Shown here piece after piece: positions 12,493 through 60,275 of a stretch of 64,000 bases of DNA. The position numbers and the translations under genes were made by a program. The stretch's first letter is position 1, and every line of letters starts with the position of its first letter. Origin of the DNA: an uncultured Chloroflexia bacterium (GTDB taxonomy: Bacteria > Chloroflexota > Limnocylindria > Limnocylindrales > CSP1-4); NCBI GenBank assembly GCA_963697135.1, contig CAVOMZ010000016.1, positions 19,640 through 83,639 on the forward strand, written 5' to 3'. Below the pieces are notes generated by a model that saw nothing but the letters and a program-made list of their open reading frames with translations, was not told where the DNA came from and did no database searches.

Positions 12493-12673
12493 GAACTCCA
12501 CCCTGGCTTTGCCATCCCTCCTCGCCCGGCGAGGAGGGCGACGACAGGGGTAGTCTGGCAGAAACGAGCTTCCGTACAATCTGAGTAAGAGCAAACGAAG
12601 CAGATAGAGAGACCTCCGGCTGATGCTCAGGTGACCCTCCTCGCCGGGCGAGGAGGGGTTAGGGGTGGAGTTC
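12493..12673. repeat. family C module: two CCCTCCTCGCC hairpins bracketed by 11-bp inverted repeats
   Basis: GAACTCCACCC (12493-12503) is the reverse complement of GGGTGGAGTTC (12663-12673). Internal hairpins at 12516-12538 and 12635-12657. The same architecture is nested in family B copies (539-705; about 17347-17508). Confidence 0.7.
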
Positions 12674-13488: not shown

Positions 13489-13662
13489 GTGATCGAGTCC
13501 TCGAGTGCTAGACCCGCCCCCCCTTGTTTACATAGCCATTATTGAGGATAAGAGGATAGCCTTCGGGCTTGCAAGCTGAAGGCTGCTTTCTGCTACGGCT
13601 TCGCCATAGGGGAGCTCGCGAAACGGGGCTGAGGTACGGAGACAACGCTCCTTGCGGGCTCC

Positions 13663-14160
13663 CATGAAATGGAGTTGAAGATGGAGCCGGTTTTGCCGCG
13701 GTGCGCTATCGCGACCTTCCGCCCCCACCCTCTTATCGTAAGAGGGACCTGAGGGCACATCCCTCAGACTCCTTGCCAAAGGGGGCTGCGCCGCCCTGGA
13801 CTCCCTGCCGGAGAATTTCATCGCGTCCGGGAAGAACGGTCAGGCCGGGCGTTGGCGTCGTTCTCTGCGCCACATTTTCATTCGCTCGTGGTGTGGCGAA
13901 GCCTCATGTCCTTCCTCCCATGAAAATGGAGTTGAAGATGGAGCCGGTTTTGCCGCGGTGCGCTATCGCGACCCTCCGCCCCCACCCTCTTTAAATAAGC
14001 GGGAGTCTGAGGGCACATCCCTCGGACTCCTTGCTCCTTCGACCTGGCTCAGGACAGGGGCCAGGGCTGCGCCCCTCTGGGACTCCCTGTCTGAGCCTTG
14101 GCATCGCTCTCTGTGCTCACATTTTCATCGGCCCAGGGTGTGGCGAAGCCCCATGCGCTG
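13663..14160 (+). repeat. family A element array (2 units, period 256 bp)
   Basis: Units start at 13663 and 13919 with CATGAAA(A)TGGAGTTGAAG. Each has the core GCCGCGGTGCGCTATCGCGACC, CCGCCCCC, a variable hairpin, and the conserved hairpin CTGAGGGCACATCCCTC(A/G)G (13749-13767, 14007-14025). Confidence 0.85.
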
Positions 14161-14272
14161 CGGGGGCTTCGATCTCTTCGCTGTTTTGCGCGCAACCCTC
14201 TCTCTCCCTGGGGGAGAGGACTTTGATTCGTCTTCTTATCGGACGACTTTGGCTTCCAAAATGCCTCCTTCG

Positions 14273-15316
14273 CTATGACAGCCAGTAGGCGAAAGCGGTG
14301 CCGATGGGCGAGGCGTAGACGGGCACGTAGTCGATGAGGGTGGCGGGCGTGCCGTCCATGGCAGCGGAGGCGGCGATCCAGTTGCAGGTCTCTCGGGTGC
14401 CGCCCTGGGGGCCGCTGAACGCGGGCATGCCGGTGCTTGCCGGACCGCGACCCGTGAGCTGCTGTGAGGTGTCGCCGGCGGGGATGCGGTAGTTGTCGAA
14501 GTACTCCGCCATGGCTCGGATGTCGCCCTTCTCCATGAGCGCTAGTGATTCGCGGTCGAAGGTCTCGTCCAGGTAGGCATTGGTGGCGCCCGGCGTGTGC
14601 CAGAGGCCGCCGGAGCCGATGATGGCGACGCGGAGATCCTCCGGATACTCGTCGATAGCGGCGCGCACGGCCTTGCCAAACTCGTAGGAGCGCTTGCCGG
14701 TGGGCTGCGGTGCGTAATAGCAGTTCATCAGAATCGGGATGATCGGCGTCTTGAGATCGGTCAAAGTCTCCGCCGGGCGCATGAAGGCGTGCCCGAGGCC
14801 GTCCTCCGGCTTCGGCATATCCATCGAGAACGCCGGGTCGAAGCCACGGGCCATGAGCCCGCGCAGGATGCCGGTCGCCAGCGCTGGGTGGCCCATGATG
14901 CGGCCGCGCGTTGGTCCGGTGTGCGCCGGTGCGTTGGCTGCCAGGTCCGGCGCGTCGTCACGGCTGCGGCCGACGGAGTCGAACGCGTCGTGGGCCAGGG
15001 CCTCAGGCGAGGACAGGGCGCCCTCGAACTCCTCGCCGACGTAGACCGCGAAGGCGGGGAAGTTGCGGAAGTCGAAGCACTCCATCTGATCGTCGCCGAA
15101 GATGACGATGACGTCCGGGTCCGCCTCCGACAGCTTGGCCTTTAGCGTATCGAAGGCCGTGGCGATACGCCGTGATTTGTCCCTGCTGGCCTCGAGGTCG
15201 TCCATCGGTACATCGGCGCGGATCGGCCGGGTGGCACGCACGGCGTTCCAGTTCTCCGGCGGCATGAAGCAAAACGGTGTGTGGGCTGTGTTGAAGACGC
15301 CTACGACTTTGGCCAT
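14273..15316 (-). CDS. class III extradiol ring-cleavage dioxygenase, LigB family
   Basis: 347 aa. MAKVVGVFNTAHTPF... and ADPDVIVIFGDDQMECF fit the LigB-type pattern. Confidence 0.75.
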   Translation of the reverse strand: MAKVVGVFNTAHTPFCFMPPENWNAVRATRPIRADVPMDDLEASRDKSRRIATAFDTLKAKLSEADPDVIVIFGDDQMECFDFRNFPAFAVYVGEEFEGALSSPEALAHDAFDSVGRSRDDAPDLAANAPAHTGPTRGRIMGHPALATGILRGLMARGFDPAFSMDMPKPEDGLGHAFMRPAETLTDLKTPIIPILMNCYYAPQPTGKRSYEFGKAVRAAIDEYPEDLRVAIIGSGGLWHTPGATNAYLDETFDRESLALMEKGDIRAMAEYFDNYRIPAGDTSQQLTGRGPASTGMPAFSGPQGGTRETCNWIAASAAMDGTPATLIDYVPVYASPIGTAFAYWLS

Positions 15317-15440: not shown

Positions 15441-15468
15441 GTAGCTGCCCAGCATGCTGGGCAGCTAC
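15441..15468. repeat. family J perfect 28-nt palindrome GTAGCTGCCCAGCATGCTGGGCAGCTAC
   Basis: The sequence is its own reverse complement. It lies 104 nt downstream of the Rieske gene stop. A related copy is at 25098-25125, with weaker ones near 27331 and 35896. Confidence 0.8.
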
Positions 15469-15571
15469 AGGCTCGAGGCACGTGATTAGACAACTCGGTC
15501 CTTGTCAAAGCTCGAGGCGATTAAGCCCTCTCCGCGCACGGAAACGGCCTGGGGAGCGGCAGCCCCCGTCC

Positions 15572-17263: not shown

Positions 17264-17610
17264 CCATCAAGGACCAGCGAGTCCTTTTGCGAGAAGGAAC
17301 ATTGCTCGTCCTGCTTCAAGTCGGACGACAGGGCATCGCCGCGAGAGAAACTCCACCCCGCGTCTCTGAATCACGATCGACCATCAAAACTCGCCCTCCT
17401 CGCCCGGCAAGGAGGGTCAGGGTTGCCTTGGGTTGTTAGAGACCGTGCGACCTGGCTGATGCGCCAACGGCGTCTGAGCTCCACTCGTCGCCGGGGGTTG
17501 AGTCCTCCCGCTCTCCTTCTGAGGCTGCACTGTGTGGCCGGCATTTCATTGGCTCAGCGGTGTGGCGAAGCCTCTCCCTTCCTCGGAGGGAGAGGGGTCA
17601 GGGAGTGAGG
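17264..17610 (+). repeat. family B hairpin-rich element, copy 2
   Basis: Reverse-complement homolog of 459-798. It ends with GGCATTTCATTGGCTCAGCGGTGTGGCGAAGCCTCTCCCTTCCTC (17540-17584), the same 3' module as family A units, followed by a family D hairpin (17571-17610). Confidence 0.8.
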
Positions 17611-18571: not shown

Positions 18572-18692
18572 GTAGGAGCCCGTTCGAGAACGGCTCCGCG
18601 CTCATCGGCAGGCCCCTAGATGTGATGTCGCTGTCAGCCTGCATCCACCCCGGCCCCACCCCGATCAAGCCTAAAGGCATGCAGCTACATCG
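18572..18692. repeat. family G module (left copy)
   Basis: Starts with GTAGGAGCCCGTTCGAGAACGGCTCCGC (18572-18599), which is exactly the reverse complement of 20289-20316. The rest is homologous to the reverse complement of 20195-20288. Confidence 0.75.
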
Positions 18693-18784
18693 TTTTGGCG
18701 AGTCTCGGCGTTGGCCGGCCAGATCGTCTCCGTTGCTTCGACCGAGCGATTGACGCGTGACCGGAGGCCGCTCGGAGGTCGGAG

Positions 18785-19990
18785 CTAGATGGAGCTGTTG
18801 ATCTCCCACTTGACGCCGTCTAGCTGCTGCTCGCGCCATTTCTGGTGCTGCCGGGTGGCGGTCCTGGAACTCGGGCATGACTTCCTTGGCGAACATCTCC
18901 AGCGTCTCCATGACGTGCTCGTGCTTGCGGTAGGGCATCTGCACGGAGAAGTTGATGATGTCCATGTGCGCCTCTTCGAAGCGGCGCAGGTTCTCGCGCA
19001 CGAAGTCCGGTGAGCCGATGAAGTTGCCGCGGCGGCCGGCCCGGAAGAGCGCCTTTTGGGTCTCGTCCTCCGGCTCTGCTTCGTCGACGCGGGCCTTTTC
19101 GGCGCCTTCCGGGCCGAAGCGCTCGACGAACTCGCGGTCGAGGTGGGTCGCGGCCGTGATGCGAGCTCGCCGTTGCTGCGGGCCAGCGAGTAGCCGAAGA
19201 ACTGGGCGCCGCGCATGCCGCGCGCGATCGCCTCTTCGTTGGTCGTCGCCATCATGAGGTTGCCGCCCGCAGCCAGCGCGGGGTTTATCGCCACGCCGAT
19301 GGGGCGGCGGCAGTTGCGGATCAGCTCGTAGTAGCGGTCGACGCGCTCGTCGGCCTCGTCCGGCGTCTCGAAGCCGACGCCGAGGGCGCCGATGCCGAGG
19401 CGAGCGCCGACCATGACGGTCTCGAGGCGGCTGGCGGCGACCCAGACGGGCGGATGCGGCTTCTGCAGCGGCTTGGGGATGATGTTGCGCTCCGGCATGC
19501 TGAAGTGGATGCCCTCGTAGCCGGGGTAGGGCGTCATGGTCATCATGCGCAGGCACTCGCGCGTCGCTTCTTCCCAGGCTTCTTTCTTGTCCTCGCGCTT
19601 CGTGCCGAAGCCGCCGATCTCGGTGATCGTGGCGCCTTCGCCGGTGCCGAACTCGACGCGGCCGTTGGAGACGAGGTCGAGCGAGGCGATGCGCTCGGCG
19701 ACGCGCGCCGGGTGGTTGTGCTTCGGCGGCATGTGGACGATGCCGTGGCCGAGGCGGATGTTCTTGGTGCGCTGGGAGGCGGCCGCGAGGAAGACCTCCG
19801 GCGCGGAGGAGGTGCTGTACTCCTCCAGGAAGTGGTGCTCGGTCTCCCAGACGTAGTCGAAGCCGAGCTTGTCGGCGAACTCGATCTGCTCCAGGGCTTC
19901 CTGCCAGACCTTGTGCTCATCGTCTTCGTCCCATTGTTCCTGGTCCAGGGGCCGGGCGACGTTGAGCTGGAACTGGATGCCGAACTTCAT
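18785..19990 (-). pseudogene. LLM-class flavin-dependent oxidoreductase, reading frame broken twice
   Basis: The N-terminal 270 aa (MKFGIQFQLN...AQFFGYSLA) are in the frame of ORF 18785..19990. The middle part (ITAATHLDREFVERF...EMFAKEVMPEFQDRHP) is in the frame of ORF 18564..19556. The tail (HQKWREQQLDGVKWEINSSI*) returns to the first frame. Shifts are near 19172 and 18853. Confidence 0.8.
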
Positions 19991-20085
19991 GTTTTCAAGT
20001 CCCTCTCGTGTGGGTAGGTTGTCCGGGCCGATTATAGGTTACAAAGCTTTGATGTCTAGCTAGTTAAGCTTGGGTGCCTGGCGAT

Positions 20086-20316
20086 GATGTAGCTGCAGAT
20101 CTTTCAGACCTGCCTGGGGCGAGGGAGGGTGGATGCGGGCTCGCAGCGGAATCCCATCTCTGGGATGAAGGCAGCGCGAGGACGATTGAGGAGCGATGTA
20201 GCTTGCAGGTTCTTCAGACCTGCTGGAGGTGGTGGATGCCGGCTTGCAGCAGAATCGCATCTCTGGGATTGTCGATGAGGGCTGATCTGCGGAGCCGTTC
20301 TCGAACGGGCTCCTAC
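20086..20316. repeat. family G modules (right copies, inverted relative to 18572-18692)
   Basis: Two direct units (about 20086-20170 and 20195-20275), each with a CAG(A/G)T(C/T)-loop-GACCTG hairpin, followed by the 28-nt block 20289-20316. A further inverted fragment lies at 20415-20440. Confidence 0.7.
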
Positions 20317-20537
20317 GAGGGGCGGGGTACGGGTGGTGCGCTCGTTGGTGGCGGCCGCTCTCGTCGATGTGACGACGCCGTTCGCTCGCACCCGCCCAGC
20401 CCTGCCCGAGCGGGTCTGAAGAACCTGCAGCTACGTGGTGCATTGTCGGATGCACGGGTGTTGGATGATTGCAAGACGTGACGACGTTGTTGGTTTGCAC
20501 CGACCCGTCCCCACCGCGGGCGCGATGATCGCGGCCC

Positions 20538-21032
20538 CTACGGTGACGTCCCTGCCTTCGGCTTTGTGAGACGCGGACCGAGGGTTAGCTCTTCGACCTG
20601 GATGCTGCCGTTGTCGATGCGGAGGATGGTGGCGGTCTGGAGCTTGTGGAAGCCCTGGCGGCCGGCGGCACCCGGGTTGAGGTAGAGGACGCCATCGCGC
20701 CACTGCGAGAGCTGACGATGGCTGTGGCCGAAAGCGACGACCCGGGTCTCGGGTGACGGCCGGGCATGGGGCAGCTCGTGGACCAGATGAATTGCGATGC
20801 TTTCGAGCTCGATGTCGAGGTGCGTCGGCAAGCCGAGGCCGCCCAGAGGTACGTCGTTGTTGCCCTGGACGGCGTAAAGCGGTGCGAGCTGTCGCAGGCC
20901 ATCGAGGACGGCATCGCTGCCAACGTCGCCGGCGTGGAGGATGACATCGACGCCTTCGAATGCGGTGAGGAGCCTCGGGTCGAGGTAGCCGTGGGTGTCA
21001 GAGACGACGCCGATGAGCATGAGTGGCCACAC
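20538..21032 (-). CDS. metallophosphoesterase (YfcE/MJ0936-like)
   Basis: Motifs GVVSDTHG, HAGD, GNND and GHSH are present. The start is either GTG 21032 or ATG 21020. Confidence 0.8.
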   Translation of the reverse strand: MWPLMLIGVVSDTHGYLDPRLLTAFEGVDVILHAGDVGSDAVLDGLRQLAPLYAVQGNNDVPLGGLGLPTHLDIELESIAIHLVHELPHARPSPETRVVAFGHSHRQLSQWRDGVLYLNPGAAGRQGFHKLQTATILRIDNGSIQVEELTLGPRLTKPKAGTSP

Positions 21033-21127
21033 CTCGCCTCTCAGGGATATCCCAGGCGTTGGATGTTGGCCACGGGATTAACACCGGATTATCACGGGAT
21101 TTGGATTGAGTTTTGATCCTAGTCTGC

Positions 21128-21567
21128 CATGAAAATGGATTTCTCCCATCGAAAAACAACGCGTGGAGAATGACGCCCGCTTTGCTGCACGGCGCTGTCG
21201 CGACGTTCCGCCCCCACCCCCTTAAATAAAACGGGATCTGAGGGCACATCCCTCAGACTCCTTGCCAGCTGGGCTGCGCCCCTCTGGACTCCCTGCCAGA
21301 GAATTTTCATCCGCTCACGGGTGTGGCGAAGCCTCATCCCTTCCTCCCATGAAAAATGGATTTCTCCCATCGAAAAACAACGCGTGGAGAATGACGCCCG
21401 CTTTGCTGCACGGCGCTGTCGCGACGCTCCGCCCCCACCCCCTTAAATAAAACGGGGTCTGAGGGCACATCCCTCAGACTCCTTGCCAGCTGGGCTGCGC
21501 CCCTCTGGACTCCCTGCCAGAGAATTGTCATCCGCTCACGGGTGTGGCGAAGCCTCATCCCTTCCTC
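21128..21567 (+). repeat. family A element array (2 head-to-tail units, period 220 bp, about 98% identical)
   Basis: Units start at 21128 and 21348 (CATGAAAA(A)TGGATTTCTCCC). Conserved hairpins at 21238-21256 and 21459-21477. Each unit ends ...GGTGTGGCGAAGCCTCATCCCTTCCTC. Confidence 0.9.
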
Positions 21568-21607
21568 AGAAGAATCTCGTGAAAATCGTGTGTTAATCCC
21601 GTGGCTA

Positions 21608-21937
21608 CTATCGGGCTGCAGCGTTGGGACCGACTCCGGGCGGGGCGGGACCCTCGAAGCGGCCGATGCCGAGGGCCTGCTGGACGTTCCACTCGTAGAT
21701 CTCGCTGACGTCGCGGAGGCCGGCTTTGACCCAGGGGTGCTCGGCGACGAGGGCTCTGGCGGCGTCCATGTTGGCTGCGCGGAGGACCCAGATGCCGACG
21801 CCCTGCTGGGTGGGGCCGCTGAACAGGACGTTGCCGTTGTCGTGGTTCTCTTTCATCCACGCGAGGTTCTGATTCTCGATACCTCGGATCGCCTCGCGCG
21901 GGCCGATTGACTTGCTCATGACTACAAACCAGGCCAT
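21608..21937 (-). CDS. YciI-like protein
   Basis: 109 aa. The size and pattern (GNVLFSGPT...GVGIWVLRAANMDAARALVAEHPW) resemble the YCII domain. Confidence 0.6.
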   Translation of the reverse strand: MAWFVVMSKSIGPREAIRGIENQNLAWMKENHDNGNVLFSGPTQQGVGIWVLRAANMDAARALVAEHPWVKAGLRDVSEIYEWNVQQALGIGRFEGPAPPGVGPNAAAR

Positions 21938-22019
21938 TCATTCCTCCTCATGCTGCGTTAAGGTGCTCCAGCCCACATTGCCAGATTTCGCTTCACATCG
22001 CTATCGTGCTGCTCCGCCC

Positions 22020-22105
22020 TCACTCCCGGTTTAAGAGAAGGAGTCTGAGGGCACATCCCTCAGACTCCTTGGCAGAGTGGGCCCAGCGGCCCCTCTGCAC
22101 TCCCT
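22020..22105 (+). repeat. family A fragment (5'-truncated)
   Basis: Contains GGAGTCTGAGGGCACATCCCTCAGACTCC (hairpin 22045-22063) and the downstream block ...GGCCCCTCTGCACTCCCTGC. The GCTGCRCGGCGCT core is missing. Confidence 0.7.
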
Positions 22106-22117
22106 GCTGGCTGGCCG

Positions 22118-22690
22118 CCAATGTGGCTGCATGCCCTTAGGGTTGCGCGGGGCTGGGTGGCGCGGATGCTGCCGGTGAGCCGAAGCGCATGTCGGGGTTG
22201 GGCAGTGCGGTGTCTTGCTGCAATGGCTTGAGTGGAGGAGGTACGTGGCGCCCTCACCCTGGCCCTCTCCCCTGAGGGGGCGAGGGGATCTGTGCGCCGG
22301 ATCTCGGTTGGAGAATAGGCCATCGCCAATTGACGCCCAACGTGGCTGCTTGCCTTTAGGCTTGCGCGGGGTTGGGGGCGCGGATGCGGCCGGTGAGCCG
22401 AAGCGCCTGTCGGGGTTGAGCAGTGCGGTGTCCGTAGATTCGGACGTGTGCCCTCACCCTGGCCCTCTCCCCTGAGGGGGCGAGGGGATTTGTGCGCCGG
22501 ATCTCGGTTGGAGAATAGGCTATCGCCAATTGACGCCCAACGTGGCTGCTGCCTTTAGGCTTGCGCGGGGTGGGTGGCGCGGATGCGGCCGGTGAGCCGA
22601 AGCGCCTGTCGGGGTTGGGCAGTGCGGTGTCCGTAGATTCGGACGTGTGCCCTCACCCTGGCCCTCTCCCCTGAGGGGCGAGGGGATCTG
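22118..22690 (+). repeat. family E tandem repeat (3 units of about 200 bp)
   Basis: Units begin at 22118, 22326 and 22526 (CCAAT(TGACGCCCAAC)GTGGCTGC...). Each contains a family D hairpin GCCCTCACCCTGGCCCTCTCCCCTGAGGGG(G)CGAGGGGA (22250-22288, 22450-22488, 22649-22686). Confidence 0.85.
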
Positions 22691-22891
22691 CTTGGGTGGC
22701 TGATGAGCGTTTGTTGGCGAAGAGCGCGGAGTTGGCTTGAAGAGCGGACTCCACCTGGCCGCCGACCGCTGGTTCCCCTTGTCGAGCCCTCTCCATTGCA
22801 ATAATGGAGAGGGTTGGGGTGAAGCAAGCCCCGACGCTTTCAGCCTTATCAACGCGTCCGTTGGAGCCGTTCCCGGACAGGCTCCTACGGC

Positions 22892-23257
22892 GGGACAAGC
22901 CAGGGGCCTTCGCGGAGATGTGACTACGATGGTCGGTTGCACCCACCCGGCCCCCTCGGGCGCGATGAATCGGGCCCCTACGGCGAGTTGTTGCACGCGA
23001 CGGAACTTTTGAATCGTGTGGCAGCCGGGATACCGTGGCCGTCGGGGAGATGTGACTACGATGGTCGGTTGCACCCACCCGGCCCCCTCGGGCGCGATGA
23101 ATCGGGCCCCTACGGCGAGTTGTTGCACGCGACGGAACTTCTGAATCGTGTGGCAGCCGGGACAAGCCAGGGGCCTTCGCGGAGATGTGACTACGATGGT
23201 CGGTTGCACCCACCCGGCCCCCTCGGGCGCGATGAATCGGGCCCCTACGGCGAGCTG
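22892..23257 (+). repeat. family F tandem repeat (3 units of about 132-135 bp) abutting the NHL gene stop
   Basis: GAGATGTGACTACGATGGTCGGTTGCACCCACCCGGCCCCCTCGGGCGCGATGAATCGGGCCCCTACGGCGAG starts at 22915, 23047 and 23182. Units 1 and 2 are followed by diverged copies of the last 13 codons of the NHL gene. Confidence 0.85.
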
Positions 23258-24253
23258 CTACACACGGCGGAACTTCTGGATGGTGTGGCAGCCGGGGCGG
23301 AAGATGCCGCCTTCGTAGGAGGTCTTGCTGACTTCGCCGACGTAGATGTCGCCCCGGCTATCGACCCAGATGCCGTGGGGTGACGTGAGGTTGCCGGCGA
23401 TGCAGGGGTCTTCTTTGGGCGGCGCGCCGAAGCGGGAGATCAGCTTGCCGTTCATGTCGCGAATAGTCATGTGGGCCGGCCGCTCGTCGGGCCAGGCAAA
23501 GCCGGCGATGGATACGAGGCCGGGCTGCCAGTACATCTGACCGATGAAGACTTTCTCATCCTTGTCGATGAACAAGTCGCCGGGGCGCTGGACGTTTTCC
23601 CAGCAGTCGAGGAACTGGCCTTCAGGTCCGAAGATCTGGATGCGGTCGTTCTCGCGGTCGCAGACGAAGACGCGGCCGTCCGTGTGCACCCAGACGCTGT
23701 GCGGCAGCATGAACTGGCCGTGCTCCTTGCCGGGGCCGCCCCAGGACTGGAGCAGCTCTCCCGAGGCGGAGAAGCGGTGGATACGAGCGTTGCCATAGCC
23801 GTCGGAGACGTAGCGCTCGCCGTTGGGGGCGACCGAGAGGCGCGTCGGGCGGTTGAAGGGCCCGGCGCCGCGCTCGATGGTTAGCAGGTTGGCGTGCTGG
23901 CGAGTGGCGCTGTAACCGGTGTCGGAGGGCAAGTTGGGTGTGCCGAGGGTCTCCAGAAGCTCGCCTTCGAGGGTGAATTTGCGCACCGTGTGGTCGCCGT
24001 CGTCGGCGAGATAGAGGATGTCGTTGTGGATGGTGATGCCGTGGGGGCGGGTGAAGACGCCTTCGCCCCAGGACTTGATGTAGCTGCCGTCGCGGTTATA
24101 GACGAGCAGCGGGTGTTCGCCGCGGTTGAAGACGTAGGCGCGGTCTTGCGAATCTGTCGCGACGCCGGCGACGTCGCCGTGGCTCCAGCCGTTGGGGATC
24201 TGCTCCCAGTCTGGTACAAGCTCGTATCGGAAGTTGCCCTGGCCTAGCGGCAT
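23258..24253 (-). CDS. NHL-repeat beta-propeller protein (peptidyl-alpha-hydroxyglycine lyase-like)
   Basis: 331 aa. Repeated NHL-type blades (...VCDRENDRIQIFGPEG..., ...HTIQKF...) with GD/DG-rich turns. Confidence 0.65.
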   Translation of the reverse strand: MPLGQGNFRYELVPDWEQIPNGWSHGDVAGVATDSQDRAYVFNRGEHPLLVYNRDGSYIKSWGEGVFTRPHGITIHNDILYLADDGDHTVRKFTLEGELLETLGTPNLPSDTGYSATRQHANLLTIERGAGPFNRPTRLSVAPNGERYVSDGYGNARIHRFSASGELLQSWGGPGKEHGQFMLPHSVWVHTDGRVFVCDRENDRIQIFGPEGQFLDCWENVQRPGDLFIDKDEKVFIGQMYWQPGLVSIAGFAWPDERPAHMTIRDMNGKLISRFGAPPKEDPCIAGNLTSPHGIWVDSRGDIYVGEVSKTSYEGGIFRPGCHTIQKFRRV

Positions 24254-24365
24254 TTGGTTGGCTCTCCTCTGCGCGGCGTTTGTCGGTGCTTGGCTCAGGG
24301 CGGAGTTTACTCGGTTGGGGGGCAGACGGGCAGATGTATGTAGGATTGAATGACGAGAAAGCGTA

Positions 24366-24724
24366 GCCTCACCCCAACGCCTCTCCGTGCGCGGAGAGGG
24401 GCTTTAGCGCGCTCGCTTCGCGAGCGGCGGCCTCGGCGATTGAAAGCTCCTCGGCTTCGAATGCGAATTCTCGTCCTTACAGGGCCGGGTTTCATCAATT
24501 CCCCGAAGCTTCGAAGGGTTCCGCGGCAACTTTGAGTGCAGCACTAACTGTGGATTGATGCAGGAGAATTTCGAAAAGCCGGGTGGCCACGTCAGCGGAT
24601 TGCAACCCCGGCCTGGAAAGACGGGCATGAGCAGTTCTTGGCGAAGCTGTTCGCTATAGTCCCGCTGCTCGCGAAGCTACGGCTCCAAAGCTCCTCTCCG
24701 CGCACGAAGGGGTTGGGATGAGGC
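24366..24724. repeat. pair of inverted family D hairpins flanking about 290 bp
   Basis: GCCTCACCCCAACGCCTCTCCGTGCGCGGAGAGGGGC (24366-24402) is an imperfect inverse of GCTCCTCTCCGCGCACGAAGGGGTTGGGATGAGGC (24690-24724). Confidence 0.55.
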
Positions 24725-24807
24725 AACACGCTTCCTGCCTCGATGCGCGTTCGCCGTGCCCGCCTGCCCTCACCGCCGCCTGTGTGTCCACGAGACTTGG
24801 TTGCGCT

Positions 24808-24853
24808 GGGACTAGATCTCTCGCCTCGGTTGGCGCCGATGGTCGAACGACAG
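24808..24853. repeat. family H element
   Basis: GGGACTAGATCTCTCGCCTCGGTTGGCGCCGATGGTCGAACGACAG. Homologous copies at 28935-28980, 46390-46435 and 57920-57970. Confidence 0.75.
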
Positions 24854-25097
24854 AAGAGTTGGCGGTAGCGGGAGCGAATCGAGGGCTCGATGCTGTTGTT
24901 CCCTCTCCCAGGCAGGGTGAGGGCGAAACCTTCGTCCACTGCCGATCAATGTGCGCAGAGAACACGGTCGTCTCTTCGTCGTCGCGTGCGCCTCCCGTCG
25001 TCGAGAGATGTGACTACGTCGGAAGCCTGCACCCGCCCCTACCCCATGGAAGCCTGAAGGCATCCCCTACAGATGGGTGCGTCTGCGACAGAACGAA

Positions 25098-25125
25098 GTA
25101 GCGGCCCAGCATGCTGGGCCGCTAC
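25098..25125. terminator. family J perfect 28-nt palindrome GTAGCGGCCCAGCATGCTGGGCCGCTAC downstream of the TPP enzyme gene
   Basis: The sequence is its own reverse complement. It sits 26 nt after the stop at 25151. On the minus strand it is followed by TTCGTTCTGTC. It differs from the 15441 copy by a paired T/A to G/C change. Confidence 0.5.
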
Positions 25126-25150
25126 TTATTCGGGCATCTTTGCCGACTGG

Positions 25151-27080: not shown

Positions 27081-27180
27081 AAGGGGGATACCCCCTTGGA
27101 CCCCCGGCAGGGTGGCTGCGCTCGCCTTCCCCTGCACTCTACCAGGCGTTGCACCCTGGACCCGCAAAGGTACGTTGCCG
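27081..27180 (+). repeat. family I element (about 100 nt), copy 1
   Basis: AAGGGGGATACCCCCTTGGACCCCCGGCAGGGTGGCTGCGCTCGCC... is about 90% identical by eye to 30719-30820. Confidence 0.75.
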
Positions 27181-27543
27181 GTTCGGATTGGGTATTGTGG
27201 CGGACGAACTCTTCATTAGCGCTCAACCTAAGAGCACTACCGATACGGTCGCGCGGTAACGGCTCGAGCTCTTCTCTCTTCGCGGGGCCGCACGTCACTG
27301 CAGCGTTGGCCGTTATAGCGGCACCGGCCTCTGCCCAGCTTGCTGGGCAGCTACAGGCTGGATGTGCTTAATTCGCCGCCTGGCCGCCACCTGCCTGACT
27401 GACTTGGGCCATTGCCAGCGCGGTTGCGTGGTACATCGGCGGGTGGCCCTGAGGGGTAGCAGGGCGGGCGAGGCAGCCCTATACTCTGCTTGCTTTCTCA
27501 AACCCCGACCAAAATCGGCGAAGCCGGACCGAAAGGACGAATC

Positions 27544-28636: not shown

Positions 28637-28850
28637 CATGAAAATGGATTTCTCCCATCGAAAAACAACGCGTGGAGAATGACGCCCGCTTTGCTGCACG
28701 GCGCTGTCGCGACGTTCCGCCCCCCCTTAAATAAAGCGGGATCTGAGGGCACATCCCTCAGACTGCTTGCCAGCTGGGCTGCGCCCCTCTGGACTCCCTG
28801 CCAGAGAATTTTCATCCGCTCACGGTGTGGCGAAGCCTCATCCCTTCCTC
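28637..28850 (+). repeat. family A element, single unit
   Basis: Near-identical to the 21128 units, apart from a few substitutions and 1-nt indels. Conserved hairpin at 28743-28761. Confidence 0.9.
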
Positions 28851-28934
28851 AGAATGGCAAACGGGTGACGATTGCGGGCTGGTCGTTGTCCGTTTGCCTA
28901 CCCCCTCCCCTGCTCTCTAGCGCAGGTTGCGCGA

Positions 28935-30718: not shown

Positions 30719-30820
30719 AAAGGGGGACACCCCCTTGGACCCCCGGCGGGGTGGCTGCGCTTGCTTTCCCCTGCACCCCTTACCAGGCGTTGCACCCTTG
30801 GACCCGCAAAGGTCAGGTGC
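30719..30820 (+). repeat. family I element, copy 2
   Basis: AAGGGGGACACCCCCTTGGACCCCCGGCGGGGTGGCTGCGCTTGC... is homologous to 27081-27180. Confidence 0.75.
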
Positions 30821-32356: not shown

Positions 32357-32580
32357 TTAGCCCCGTGCCGTACTAAACCAGAGGCTGTAAAGCTCGCTGA
32401 ATACAGCCATGGAGGTTCTACCGAATCGTTGTTGAAGAAGATGGGCGACGGCTCAGCTGAGCAGATGTCCTTAGCAATTGTGCCACGAAGCGGCGCTTAG
32501 CCGCGAAGGATCGCTGTTACGGGAGCATCACGACTTGGCTAGAGTTGAGTCGATGGACCTTGTCCTGGCTGGCGTAACCA

Positions 32581-33226
32581 GGGCTCCGACGCAGGAGCCG
32601 GCTTTGCTGCGCGGCGCTATCGCGACGCTCCGCCCCCGCCCCCATTGGGGATGGGAGGTCTGAGGGCACATCCCTCAGACTCCTTGGCAAAGGGCTAGTC
32701 GCCCTCTGCACTTCCGAAGGAATGAAGGCGTAAGCGAAATGGCAAAACTGAGTGCGCGTCTTATGGGCATTCGCACGTCGAATTCTGGGGGCGCGAGTCC
32801 GGTGTGCGAGGGCTCCGACGCAGGAGCCGGCTTTGCTGCGCGGCGCTGTCGCGATGCTCCGCCCCCGCCCCCATTGGGGATGGGAGGTCTGAGGGCACAT
32901 CCCTCAGACTCCTTGGCAAAGGGCTAGTCGCGCTCTGCACTTCCGAACGAATGAAAGACGTAAGCGAAATGGCAAAATTGAATGCGCGTCTTAGTGGCAT
33001 TCGTCCGTCGAATTCTGGGGCGTGAGTCTGGTGTACGAAGGCTCCGACGCAGGAGCCGGCTTTGCTGTGCGGCGCTATCGCGACGCTCCGCCCCCACCTC
33101 CATTGGGAATGGGAGGTCTGAGGGCACATCCCTCAGACTCCTTGGCATAGGGCTAGTCGCCCTCTGCACTTCCGGCTTGGAGAATTTCATTGCCTCAGGG
33201 TGGGCGAAGCTTCATCCCTTCCTCTC
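32581..33226 (+). repeat. family A-related array (3 units, period about 229 bp, mosaic 3' ends)
   Basis: Units start at 32581, 32810 and 33040 (GGGCTCCGACGCAGGAGCCGGCTTTGCTGCGCGGCGCT...). Conserved hairpins at 32660-32678, 32889-32907 and 33118-33136. Only unit 3 ends with the ...GAGAATTTCATTGCCTCAGGGTGGGCGAAGCTTCATCCCTTCCTC module. Confidence 0.85.
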
Positions 33227-36071: not shown

Positions 36072-36425
36072 TTACCAGCGGTTGCCGCCGCCACCACCGC
36101 CGCGGCCGCCGGAGCTGTAGCCGCCACCACCACCGCCGCCGTAGCCACCGCCGCGGTTGCCACCGCCGCCGGAGCTGCGCTCTTCACGAGGACGAGCCTC
36201 GTTGACGGTCAGGGTGCGGCCCTGGAGCTGGGTGCCGTTGAGGCCGGCAATTGCTGCCTGCGCCTCGGTCTGGTTCGACATCTCGACGAAGCCGAAGCCG
36301 CGGGCACGCCCGGTGTCGCGGTCGGTTGCGATGCGAGCAGTGGAGACGGCGCCGTAGGTGGCAAATGCCGCCTGGAGGTCGCTCTCGCTGGTGTCAAAGC
36401 TAAGGTTGCCTACATAAATGTTCAA
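36072..36425 (-). CDS. RRM-type RNA-binding protein with Gly/Arg-rich tail
   Basis: RNP2 NIYVGNLSF and RNP1 RGFGFVEM, with a C-terminal GGGNRGGGYGGGGGGGY tail. The likely start is TTG 36425, giving (M)NIYVGNL. ORF 36072..36464 in the track has an implausible N-terminal extension. Confidence 0.85.
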   Translation of the reverse strand: MNIYVGNLSFDTSESDLQAAFATYGAVSTARIATDRDTGRARGFGFVEMSNQTEAQAAIAGLNGTQLQGRTLTVNEARPREERSSGGGGNRGGGYGGGGGGGYSSGGRGGGGGGNRW

Positions 36426-36692
36426 AGATTCTCTTCTCTCACTAGCCCCAACGTTTGGGGGCACTTACCGGTACCGATTTCGGAGACCAGGGGCATCAAC
36501 GAGGTCCCGGGAGAGACGTAAAACAACGACTGAGTCCGGAAAATTCGCGTGGCTTGGGTCTTGTCGGTCAGCAGCTCGCGGGCCTGCAAGAGGGGTGCAA
36601 TCGAGGAGCTACGCTTTCACTCTAACACGAACTGAATCGGCACGCCCGGCGCTAAATGTCGCAGAGACGCATAAATTCAGGCCTTTGGTGTC

Positions 36693-52388: not shown

Positions 52389-52742
52389 TCGACGCATTCG
52401 TCCGCCAGCCCAACTCTGATCAGCCAACGCCGAAGGGCGCGTCCTTTTACGAGATCAGGATGCTGTTGGAAGCTATCTGCAGGGCTCTTGGTTGCTTGCA
52501 AGATGTGTGATGGCGCGAAGAGATCTGCCGCGTTGAGTGGTCCGCAATACAGACTCACGGCATCCTGAGCCTGTCGAAGGACGGGCGCTCTGGCAATTTG
52601 CCGGACAAGCTCTCGTCAGCTCGGCGAGCGCAATCCTTGGTCGCCCGGAGGACCCCGTTCCAGCGGGCGCTCGGCTGAGCGCCCTACATTGTCCGGCGTG
52701 GCGACTTCGACTAAGGCGGCAACCACAACAATGAGGCAGCCG

Positions 52743-60124: not shown

Positions 60125-60275
60125 CGGCTGGGCAAATGGATGCCCGCTTTGCTGCGCGGCGCTATCGCGACGGTCCGCCCCCATCCCTTGAAAACAAATA
60201 ACCCGGGGGACACCGCCTGGAACTCCGGCAGAGAGTGGCTTCGCTTGCGCCGCTCTCTGCACTCTTTGCATGGCA
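60125..60275 (+). repeat. degenerate family A-like element
   Basis: It keeps the core GCCCGCTTTGCTGCGCGGCGCTATCGCGACGGTCCGCCCCC but lacks the GAGGGCACATCCCTC hairpin. Confidence 0.6.

Follow-up and report, generated by a model that had tools for sequence, protein, structure and literature searches.

Repetitive extragenic palindromic (REP) sequences comprise super-families that are defined by a tetranucleotide (GTAG or CGTC) that stays unpaired at one end of the palindrome (PMC3733652). In this study we analyzed a 64-kb stretch of contig CAVOMZ010000016.1 (hereafter the window), in which an earlier note, made from the letters alone, had pointed to a hairpin-bearing repeat that we refer to as family A. 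It lies outside both super-families because its tags differ: hairpin P2 of family A carries ACTCC (GGAGT on the other strand) and hairpin P3 carries RACYCC. Our analysis confirmed that family A is a genuine repeat family. It is modular, contains conserved hairpins, is dispersed to unrelated sites and forms tandems with zero spacer. With a probability of about 0.55, we regard it as a structured DNA repeat, non-autonomous and either still or until recently mobile, that belongs to a Dehalococcoidia-like chromosome and resembles REP sequences, bacterial interspersed mosaic elements (BIMEs) and REP doublets forming hairpins (REPINs) or palindrome-associated transposable elements (PATEs).

Copies and anatomy of family A

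Copies were located with the 19-mer CTGAGGGCACATCCCTCAG, and 100 dinucleotide-preserving shuffles of the window served as chance control. Eight exact copies, all on the plus strand, were found at 13749, 21238, 21459, 22045, 28743, 32660, 32889 and 33118, and a ninth at 14007 (+) carries one A to G mismatch, giving a T:G pair on the plus strand. All of these positions had been listed in the earlier note and were confirmed; the shuffles contained the 19-mer in 0 of 100 cases. The 5-nt loop of the hairpin is identical in 9/9 window copies. Moreover, the upstream motif GCGCTRTCGCGAYNYTCCGCCC, previously described as a core motif of the units, occurs ten times, again only on the plus strand, against approximately 0.07 expected occurrences; its copy at 60159 is without an intact hairpin. 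The head CCCATGAAAATGGA and the tail GGTGTGGCGAAGCCTCAT were also counted far above chance in the window. A repeat finder reported periods of 257 nt (13662-14160, two units), 221 nt (21127-21567, two units, 98% identity) and 229 nt (32582-33174, 2.6 units, 93% identity), and a covariance model of the core recognized ten cores, all on the plus strand. The claim of ten copies at six loci holds only if a degenerate copy at 60139 and a truncated one at 21978 are counted, and units of 221-257 bp are present at five loci.

Read 5' to 3', a complete unit (e.g. 21348-21567) consists of the head CCATGAAAA..., a core of approximately 129 nt, the motif ATTTTCAT and a tail ending in ...CGCTCACGGGTGTGGCGAAGCCTCATCCCTTCCTC. 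The head contains the mini-hairpin CCAT-GAAA-ATGG. The core is made of three conserved hairpins, P0, P2 and P3. P0 has the form GC(R)xCGC-YNTC-GCGx(Y)GC with a 7-position stem and a constant central mismatch, and is located directly before TCCGCCCCC. P2 is the 19-mer, followed by ACTCCTTG with the adjoining unpaired tag ACTCC (GGAGT on the other strand). P3 starts with G(G/C)CA... and carries the 3' tag ACTYCC or RACYCC. A further C-rich/G-rich hairpin, P1, is variable and cannot be aligned across the family; this is the second hairpin of the earlier note, whose examples at 13728, 21440 and 32636 are present as claimed, together with the head CCCATGAAAA and the tail GGTGTGGCGAAGCCTCAT...CCTTCCTC. 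The tail of about 35-45 nt ends in CCTC, and 6 nt before its 3' end it forms an imperfect hairpin, GGGTGTGGCGAAGCCTCATCCC.

The copies, all on the plus strand, differ in completeness. Unit A1a (13662-13918, 257 nt) comprises the head CCATGAAATGG, the core at 13683-13812 with P2 at 13749-13767, an extra hairpin insert and a tail ending in TTCCTC. A1b (13919-14160) abuts it with zero spacer; in its core (13940-14094) P2 is the A to G variant (14007-14025), P3 is split by a module of about 28 nt, CCTTCGACCTGGCTCAGGA, and the tail is degenerate toward the 3' end. A2a (21127-21347, 221 nt) is complete, with head, core (21172-21300), P2 (21238-21256) and tail, and contains a P4-like CTCTGG/CCAGAG hairpin followed by AATTTTCAT. 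A2b (21348-21567, core 21393-21521) is a head-to-tail tandem of A2a with 99% identity, and at their junction ...CCCTTCCTC runs directly into CCATGAAAAA. The truncated core at 21978-22111 extends from P0 to P3 only (P2 at 22045-22063) and is without head and tail. A2c (28637-28851, core 28681-28805) is a solitary complete unit 7.3 kb away from A2a and A2b. It is 98-99% identical to both, although the flanks are unrelated and share only CTC and AGAA, which argues for a recent spread. The A3 array (32580-33224) holds three cores (32594-32722, 32823-32951 and 33052-33180) at a period of 229 nt; it is without the CCATGAAAA head and only the last unit has a tail. In the earlier note the units had been said to start with the head and most of them to end with the tail; in the internal units of this array both are missing. 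Finally, the core at 60139-60273 is old and degenerate: P0 and P3 are intact, and P2 has decayed to CCCGGGGGACACCGCCTGG with a GACAC-type loop. Around P2 the subfamilies A1, A2 and A3 are 73-91% identical, and P2 plus the next 8 nt agree at 25-27 of 27 positions in every pair.

A coding reading of the minus strand (GGAGGAAGGGATG) was rejected: none of the unit lengths (257, 221 and 229) is divisible by 3, the copy at 459-519 has not kept the ATG, and the short open reading frames (ORFs) differ among subfamilies.

Conserved structure of the core

The covariance model was built from 11 well-aligned cores with P0, P2, an extension of P2 and P3 annotated. With E <= 0.001 it collected 78 cores from the window and from soil and sediment metagenome contigs, and P0 and P3 show many compensatory changes among them. 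In this alignment, whose fitting to the model favours structure, standard pairs were found in 86% of the cells compared to 73% in shuffles, both sides had changed in 22 of 28 pairs, and the covariation score was 0.26 compared to 0.01-0.06 with partners slid by 1-3 columns. All six pairs of P0 covary (94-95% of cells paired), as do all ten pairs of P3 (88%). P2 is paired in 95% of the cells and mostly invariant; at one of its pairs, A-U to U-A and G-C swaps occur. No support was obtained for extending P2 by GGAGT/ACTCC (52% of the cells paired) or by the longer GGAGTC/GACTCC stem that had been proposed. MAFFT and RNAalifold on the raw cores recovered P2 only, because indels concealed P0 and P3 until the alignment was guided by the covariance model; a fresh RNAalifold run on the model-guided alignment returned P0, P2 and inner P3. 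When the P3 window was folded unaligned, more than 15 unrelated stem sequences appeared at the same position. For the earlier notion that structure is kept while sequence is not, the best evidence resides in P0, which falls within the core motif of the earlier note, and in P3, directly downstream of the 19-mer; it does not reside in P1, which cannot be aligned and is often absent in relatives.

Such a structure raises the question whether family A is a multicopy non-coding RNA, either a small RNA or a cis-acting one, with the core of approximately 129 nt acting as RNA and the tandems being gene duplications. It could bind a protein via the invariant P2 loop or via repeated CUCC motifs. Compensatory changes in P0 as well as P3 and the P2 loop shared by the nine window copies would fit, as would fold energies below those of shuffles on both strands (z = -3.0 on the plus and -4.0 on the minus strand). 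Moreover, on the plus strand a terminator-like hairpin followed by AAUUUUCAU stands after the core, and T:G variants occur on this strand in P2 and P0. However, G:T and A:C combinations were counted at 15:4 in P0 and at 6:25 in P3, and these opposite trends mean that the functional strand cannot be read from the sequence; the U:G variant at 14007 therefore does not serve as a sign of an RNA strand. No promoter-like (sigma-70) site was found in or before the units, P3 tolerates a 28-nt insertion, and the tail is conserved beyond the putative terminator, yet it is common to a second family, family B, with a different interior. The orientation to neighbouring genes varies, inverted pairs exist, and the occurrence in close relatives is patchy. 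In Rfam no match was obtained at the gathering threshold for the whole window, and in E-value mode the best hit for 13500-14300 had a value of 3.1, which is noise; this agrees with the previous remark that no named RNA family with these features was known to its author. Taken together, we consider an RNA function unlikely, albeit the least unlikely of the alternatives to a mobile DNA repeat.

Element ends and family B

The left end of the elements is CCATGAAAA... and the right end ...GGTGTGGCGAAGCC...CCTC. All right ends terminate in CCTC, and in 4/6 independent cases the left junction reads CTC before CCATG. In the tandems ...CCTTCCTC is followed by CCATGAAAA... with zero spacer (...CCTC, CCATG...). 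The ends are thus asymmetric with subterminal hairpins, and neither terminal inverted repeats (TIRs) nor target site duplications (TSDs) were found, as in PATEs. Neither terminus, CCATGAAAA... or ...CCTTCCTC, is the inverted repeat of the other, and none of the six junction pairs shows a direct target duplication (flank pairs are e.g. GTCTG/AGAAG, CTCCTC/AGAAT, TTCTC/GCAAG and CTTGG/GGAGG).

These observations bear on the idea that family A is a classical MITE (miniature inverted-repeat transposable element), i.e. an internally deleted insertion sequence of a DDE transposase that moves by cut-and-paste via its TIRs. The size of 215-335 bp is typical, and there is one inverted repeat near both ends, ATGAAAAT/ATTTTCAT, of 8-10 bp, which is kept in families A and B as well as in L017, L099 and L111 (L-numbers such as L001 denote matched loci on contigs of metagenomes or metagenome-assembled genomes, MAGs). 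However, its right member lies inward of the right end by about 40 nt, and the tail outside it is without exception repeated along with it. As CCATG... and ...CCTC, the true termini, do not form inverted repeats and target duplications are lacking at all six junction pairs, a MITE origin appears improbable. Even less credit is due to a derivative of an IS110/IS1111-type element with a bridge-RNA-like structure, in which CT or CTC at the junctions would be the recombination core. It would account for the CTC at most left junctions and all right ends, and asymmetric ends without TSD, subterminal inverted repeats and a highly structured interior would also agree with it. Nevertheless, IS110 needs a programmed target of 11-14 nt, while the flanks of A2a/A2b and A2c have only CTC and AGAA in common. 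We rejected this idea because near-identical copies are located in unrelated flanks; besides, the window did not yield a DEDD recombinase.

The second family has the same ends. One copy of family B at 446-782 on the minus strand has a head, CCCATGAAAAAT, and a tail, ATTTCATCGGCTCACGGGTGTGGTGAAGCCTCCTGCCCTCCTC, as in family A, and another at 17269-17596 on the plus strand is 79% identical to it, with a degenerate head and the tail end CCCTTCCTC. The tail module accordingly recurs on the opposite strand at 459-503 and at 17538-17582. Family B elements are about 335 nt long and their interior, built around CCCTCCTCGCCSGGCRAGGAGGG hairpins, is wholly unlike that of family A, whereas the head CCCATGAAAA and the tail of about 45 nt, ATTTCATYGGCTCASGGGTGTGGYGAAGCCTC...CCYTCCTC, are common to both. 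Lone CCCTCCTCGCCSGGCRAGGAGGG hairpins are present at 12500-12541 and 12619-12660. Since the two families share termini over different interiors, they resemble a set of non-autonomous elements served by one enzyme.

The single orientation of family A had been pointed out in the earlier note. All family A copies of the 64 kb are indeed on the plus strand, which for six loci would occur by chance with a probability of only about 0.03. This uniformity is weak evidence, as family B occurs on both strands of the window and relatives outside it are arranged as inverted pairs and face either way with respect to neighbouring genes.

Search for a mobilising enzyme

The proteins of the window contain no transposase or recombinase domains. 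TnpA or TnpB were found neither in the window nor beside 128 related loci, and no recurrent protein family accompanies the elements at these 128 loci. A REP-associated tyrosine transposase (RAYT; Y1_Tnp) was found neither in the window nor between the paired copies in L024, L026, L037 and L097, and an autonomous relative with the same ends (TnpA(Y1)/TnpB) was found neither in the window nor at 132 loci. The IS200/IS605-PATE lead of the earlier note agrees with the anatomy (asymmetric ends, no TIR or TSD, a subterminal 3' hairpin and two families sharing termini).

Relatives in genomes and metagenomes

A scan of a genome collection (596 Gb) with the 19-mer gave 8 matches, which is near the number predicted by chance (about 4); the source genome itself was absent from them. 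Flanks including P3 were shared only by L001 and L005, both from Dehalococcoidia MAGs. In L002, L003 and L006 (Acidobacteriaceae MAG) and L004 (Terriglobales MAG) the stem GCCTTTAGGCG/GCCTAAAGGC, part of a CTAG-flanked repeat of about 200 nt, is capped by the identical 19-mer; this is either a chance match or a shared module.

A query with the loop positions unspecified, CTGAGGGNNNNNCCCTCAGACTCC, detected the frame CTGAGGG-N5-CCCTCAGACTCC in at least 120 metagenome loci. Many matches at 60-72% GC carry the whole core architecture, whereas contigs of lower GC contain only strings of "hairpin + GAC(C/T)CC" modules, including strings of three or four modules in contigs of 40-60% GC (L019, L021, L022 and L083). 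P2 and P3 therefore represent two instances of a very widespread module. To our knowledge, no name or mechanism has been published for this "hairpin + GAC(C/T)CC" or "hairpin+ACYCC" class. The hairpin that had been called invariant is so only in this lineage. Elsewhere the loops are mostly GACAC or GAGAC (among the matches listed, GACAC 38, GAGAC 16, CTTCG 15, CTCCG 12 and CACAT 5, out of at least 120), and P2 is a lineage-specific variant of the widespread module. CACAT is present in three high-GC relatives (L017, L078 and L084), of which L017 also has a CCATGAAAATG head and a ...CCCTCCTC end.

In the window only direct tandems and no inverted pairs were observed. In contrast, inverted heterodimers occur in the relatives L009, L044, L116, L117 and L026. 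The partner copies carry TGTGGGGACACCCCACA instead of CTGAGGGGACACCCCTCAG (L044:658-802, L116:1732-1855, L009:678-818 and L117:610-724), with compensatory stem changes, and are reminiscent of the Y and Z REP types in BIMEs. Plasmids, phages and viral contigs gave no match to family A. The MAGs with a FAA hydrolase 83-84% identical to that of the window contain zero copies in 49 kb. At these orthologous loci synteny is not conserved, which precluded an empty-site comparison. A literature search for the sequence strings and for repeats of Chloroflexi or Dehalococcoidia returned no description of the family, although absence there is not proof.

Two side observations concern nested elements. A mini-module of about 20 nt, CCTTCGAC(N2-5)GCTCAGG, is found at 14036, 17209 and 61935 (+) and at 52580 (-), as well as in L031, L045, L060, L071, L107 and L111. 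It is placed within the P3 or P0 loop in A1b and several metagenome relatives and looks like a nested insertion of an even smaller element. In L065 (4860-5095) a perfect inverted repeat of 20 bp, CTAGTACACGACCGCAGTGG, encloses a core of the family A type, which appears to be nested within another palindromic or MITE-like repeat.

Genomic setting and a possible role for the host

The window is an ordinary piece of chromosome with about 63% GC. Its genes include ffh, rimM, transporters, ring-cleavage dioxygenases and luciferase-like monooxygenases, and for one protein the best named homologues are from "Dehalococcoidia bacterium" MAGs with 82-84% identity. A gene call based on GC content at third codon positions placed 29 genes on the minus and 18 on the plus strand. 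According to this call every family A copy of the window is intergenic, in unusually long gaps of 0.5-1.3 kb; four loci are located between minus-strand genes, and the copy at 28637 lies between convergent genes. Outside the window, crude gene calls yielded fully resolved contexts of 16 >E<, 13 <E<, 8 >E> and 7 <E>, where E is the element and the arrowheads are the neighbouring genes. This suggests some preference for gene 3' ends without a fixed orientation to the neighbours. In L026 and L097 a copy is present in nearly every intergenic gap. Where neighbouring copies were compared, the genes between them are housekeeping genes (FtsA, SDRs, amidohydrolase).

These contexts would also be expected if family A consisted of BIME-like elements that no longer move and are maintained by the host as bidirectional terminators, stabilisers of mRNA 3' ends or sites for nucleoid or topology proteins. 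The excess at convergent gene ends, the small number in divergent (promoter) regions and the dense occupation of gaps in L026 and L097 point in this direction. In the window, the 221-nt units have a terminator-like hairpin with a U-tract on each strand and, from their sequence, look like bidirectional terminators; A2c, one of this A2 type, is the unit between convergent genes. However, a U-tract after P2 or P3 is missing in most relatives, and P2 as a general terminator was rejected on this ground. Moreover, the 98-99% identity of dispersed copies speaks for recent spread, three tandem copies exceed what termination needs, and related genomes manage without any copy. A purely host-maintained repeat is thus somewhat less likely still than a functional RNA, while a host-serving role of this kind is compatible with a mobile origin.

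Several other features were observed around the copies. The truncated core lies in a 1.3-kb intergenic gap full of repeats (21937-23261), which also contains tandems of 199 bp (22250-22690, 2.2 copies) and 132 bp (22891-23296, 3 copies). A 41-nt motif, GAGATGTGACTACGATGGTCGGTTGCACCCACCCGGCCCCC, occurs seven times from 18617 to 25045. The palindrome CTGCCCAGCATGCTGGGCAG is found three times near gene ends (15445-15487, 25102-25144 and 27331-27373) and is possibly a repeat of the terminator type. Another "hairpin + GACCCC" module, AAGGGGGAYACCCCCTTGGACCCCCGGC..., is present in two copies with 93% identity at 27081-27137 and 30720-30776; its sequence is unrelated to P2. A gene on the minus strand (36075-36464) encodes a small RRM_1 RNA-binding protein with a glycine-rich tail from GGC repeats.

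A proposed model for the spread of family A

We propose that the elements are mobilised in trans by an enzyme that is encoded elsewhere in the genome and would recognize their ends. Most plausibly this would be a single-strand transposase of the HUH/Y1 type, because asymmetric ends, the lack of TSDs and hairpins with adjacent unpaired tags are also features of REP-RAYT and IS200/IS605. Insertion would take place next to CTC. Since CCTC is also the end of the element, a newcomer could land right after a resident copy, which would produce head-to-tail arrays. The 229-nt array, in which the inner units are without head and tail, more likely grew by unequal recombination. The near-invariant block of P2 and ACTCCTTG is probably kept by selection for a sequence-specific partner and not for structure alone; recognition of P2 and ACTCC by a protein would explain why the sequence is invariant including the loop. 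As a secondary effect, transcribed hairpins may serve as transcript-end hairpins.

A number of points weigh against this proposal. No transposase was found in the 64-kb window, between neighbouring copies or recurrently beside the 128 loci, and no pair of filled and empty sites was obtained, so that mobility and the exact ends are not demonstrated. The high identity of dispersed copies could also result from gene conversion, and three strongly covarying hairpins would equally be seen in a functional RNA. P2, the block conserved most, is located mid-unit, whereas an IS200-type enzyme would act at the ends. The CTC at the left junctions could be just the first three bases of the element. Besides, the presence of family B on both strands weakens the argument from the replication strand.

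A more far-reaching and rather doubtful version of the proposal is that families A and B are cargo variants of an undescribed HUH-type non-autonomous transposon system of Dehalococcoidia, either IS200/IS605-like or rolling-circle. Such a system would target its own terminal trinucleotide (CCTC) and thereby form head-to-tail arrays, and the multi-hairpin core with the 3' tail would be a retained guide-RNA-like scaffold of the omega-RNA type or a platform for a partner protein. "Hairpin+ACYCC" would then join GTAG and CGTC as a third super-family of tagged REP sequences, extending over several phyla.

The present data describe a family of modular build whose ends are defined; it occurs in Dehalococcoidia-like genomes and in no fewer than 60 metagenome contigs, and a covariance model is supplied for it. 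Family A is named in no database, and small structured repeats are poorly catalogued outside Proteobacteria. Such repeats also have practical consequences. They fragment assemblies, as seen in a 1.4-kb contig of run ERR11563127, which derives from this organism, matches the window at 99.9% identity and breaks off within a family A repeat; they yield spurious ORFs and can pass for RNA genes. If a partner enzyme is found, the elements would be a tractable example of a recognition code of tag plus hairpin unlike GTAG and CGTC and would provide a mechanism for head-to-tail arrays. If the elements act as RNA, they would represent a widespread unnamed structured RNA. The main points are the modular ends, the breadth in uncultured Chloroflexota-like genomes and the testable prediction that a cognate enzyme exists whose hairpin-tag specificity is new.

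Comparison with known systems

Similar to REP sequences, BIMEs and REPINs, family A combines a GC-rich imperfect hairpin with an unpaired tag at the foot of the stem (ACTCC in family A; CTAC in REP, i.e. GTAG on the other strand). It is strictly extragenic, reaches high local density, has lineage-specific variants and forms mosaics with other motifs. In some genomes inverted heterodimers occur, and most copies are without an adjacent transposase. However, REP sequences have 20-40 nt, whereas a family A unit has 129-257 nt, three different hairpins and a defined head and tail. P2 with its tag comprises 24 nt and recurs as a module; the repeated unit is the 129-nt core or the full 221-257 nt. 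The window copies are direct tandems, while head-to-tail dimers are rare in REP families, and no RAYT was identified with family A in the window or between paired copies.

The resemblance to PATEs of IS200/IS605 elements comprises the size of 100-400 bp, asymmetric ends without TIR and TSD, a subterminal 3' hairpin, conservation of a short sequence 5' of the left end, identical ends around different interiors and the same-strand bias of family A in the window. On the other hand, no TnpA/TnpB was found in the window or beside the 128 loci, the most conserved hairpin of family A is internal and family B is present on both strands. Membership of family A in the PATEs is therefore unproven.

Bacterial MITEs such as Correia/NEMIS, ERIC, RUP and Nezha are likewise small, non-coding, intergenic and foldable, include multiple subfamilies and can affect transcript ends, but they are defined by TIRs and TSDs, and family A has neither. 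Finally, P2 and P3 correspond to two of the generic "hairpin + GAC(C/T)CC" modules, which in family A are supplemented by a head, a tail and the P0 half.

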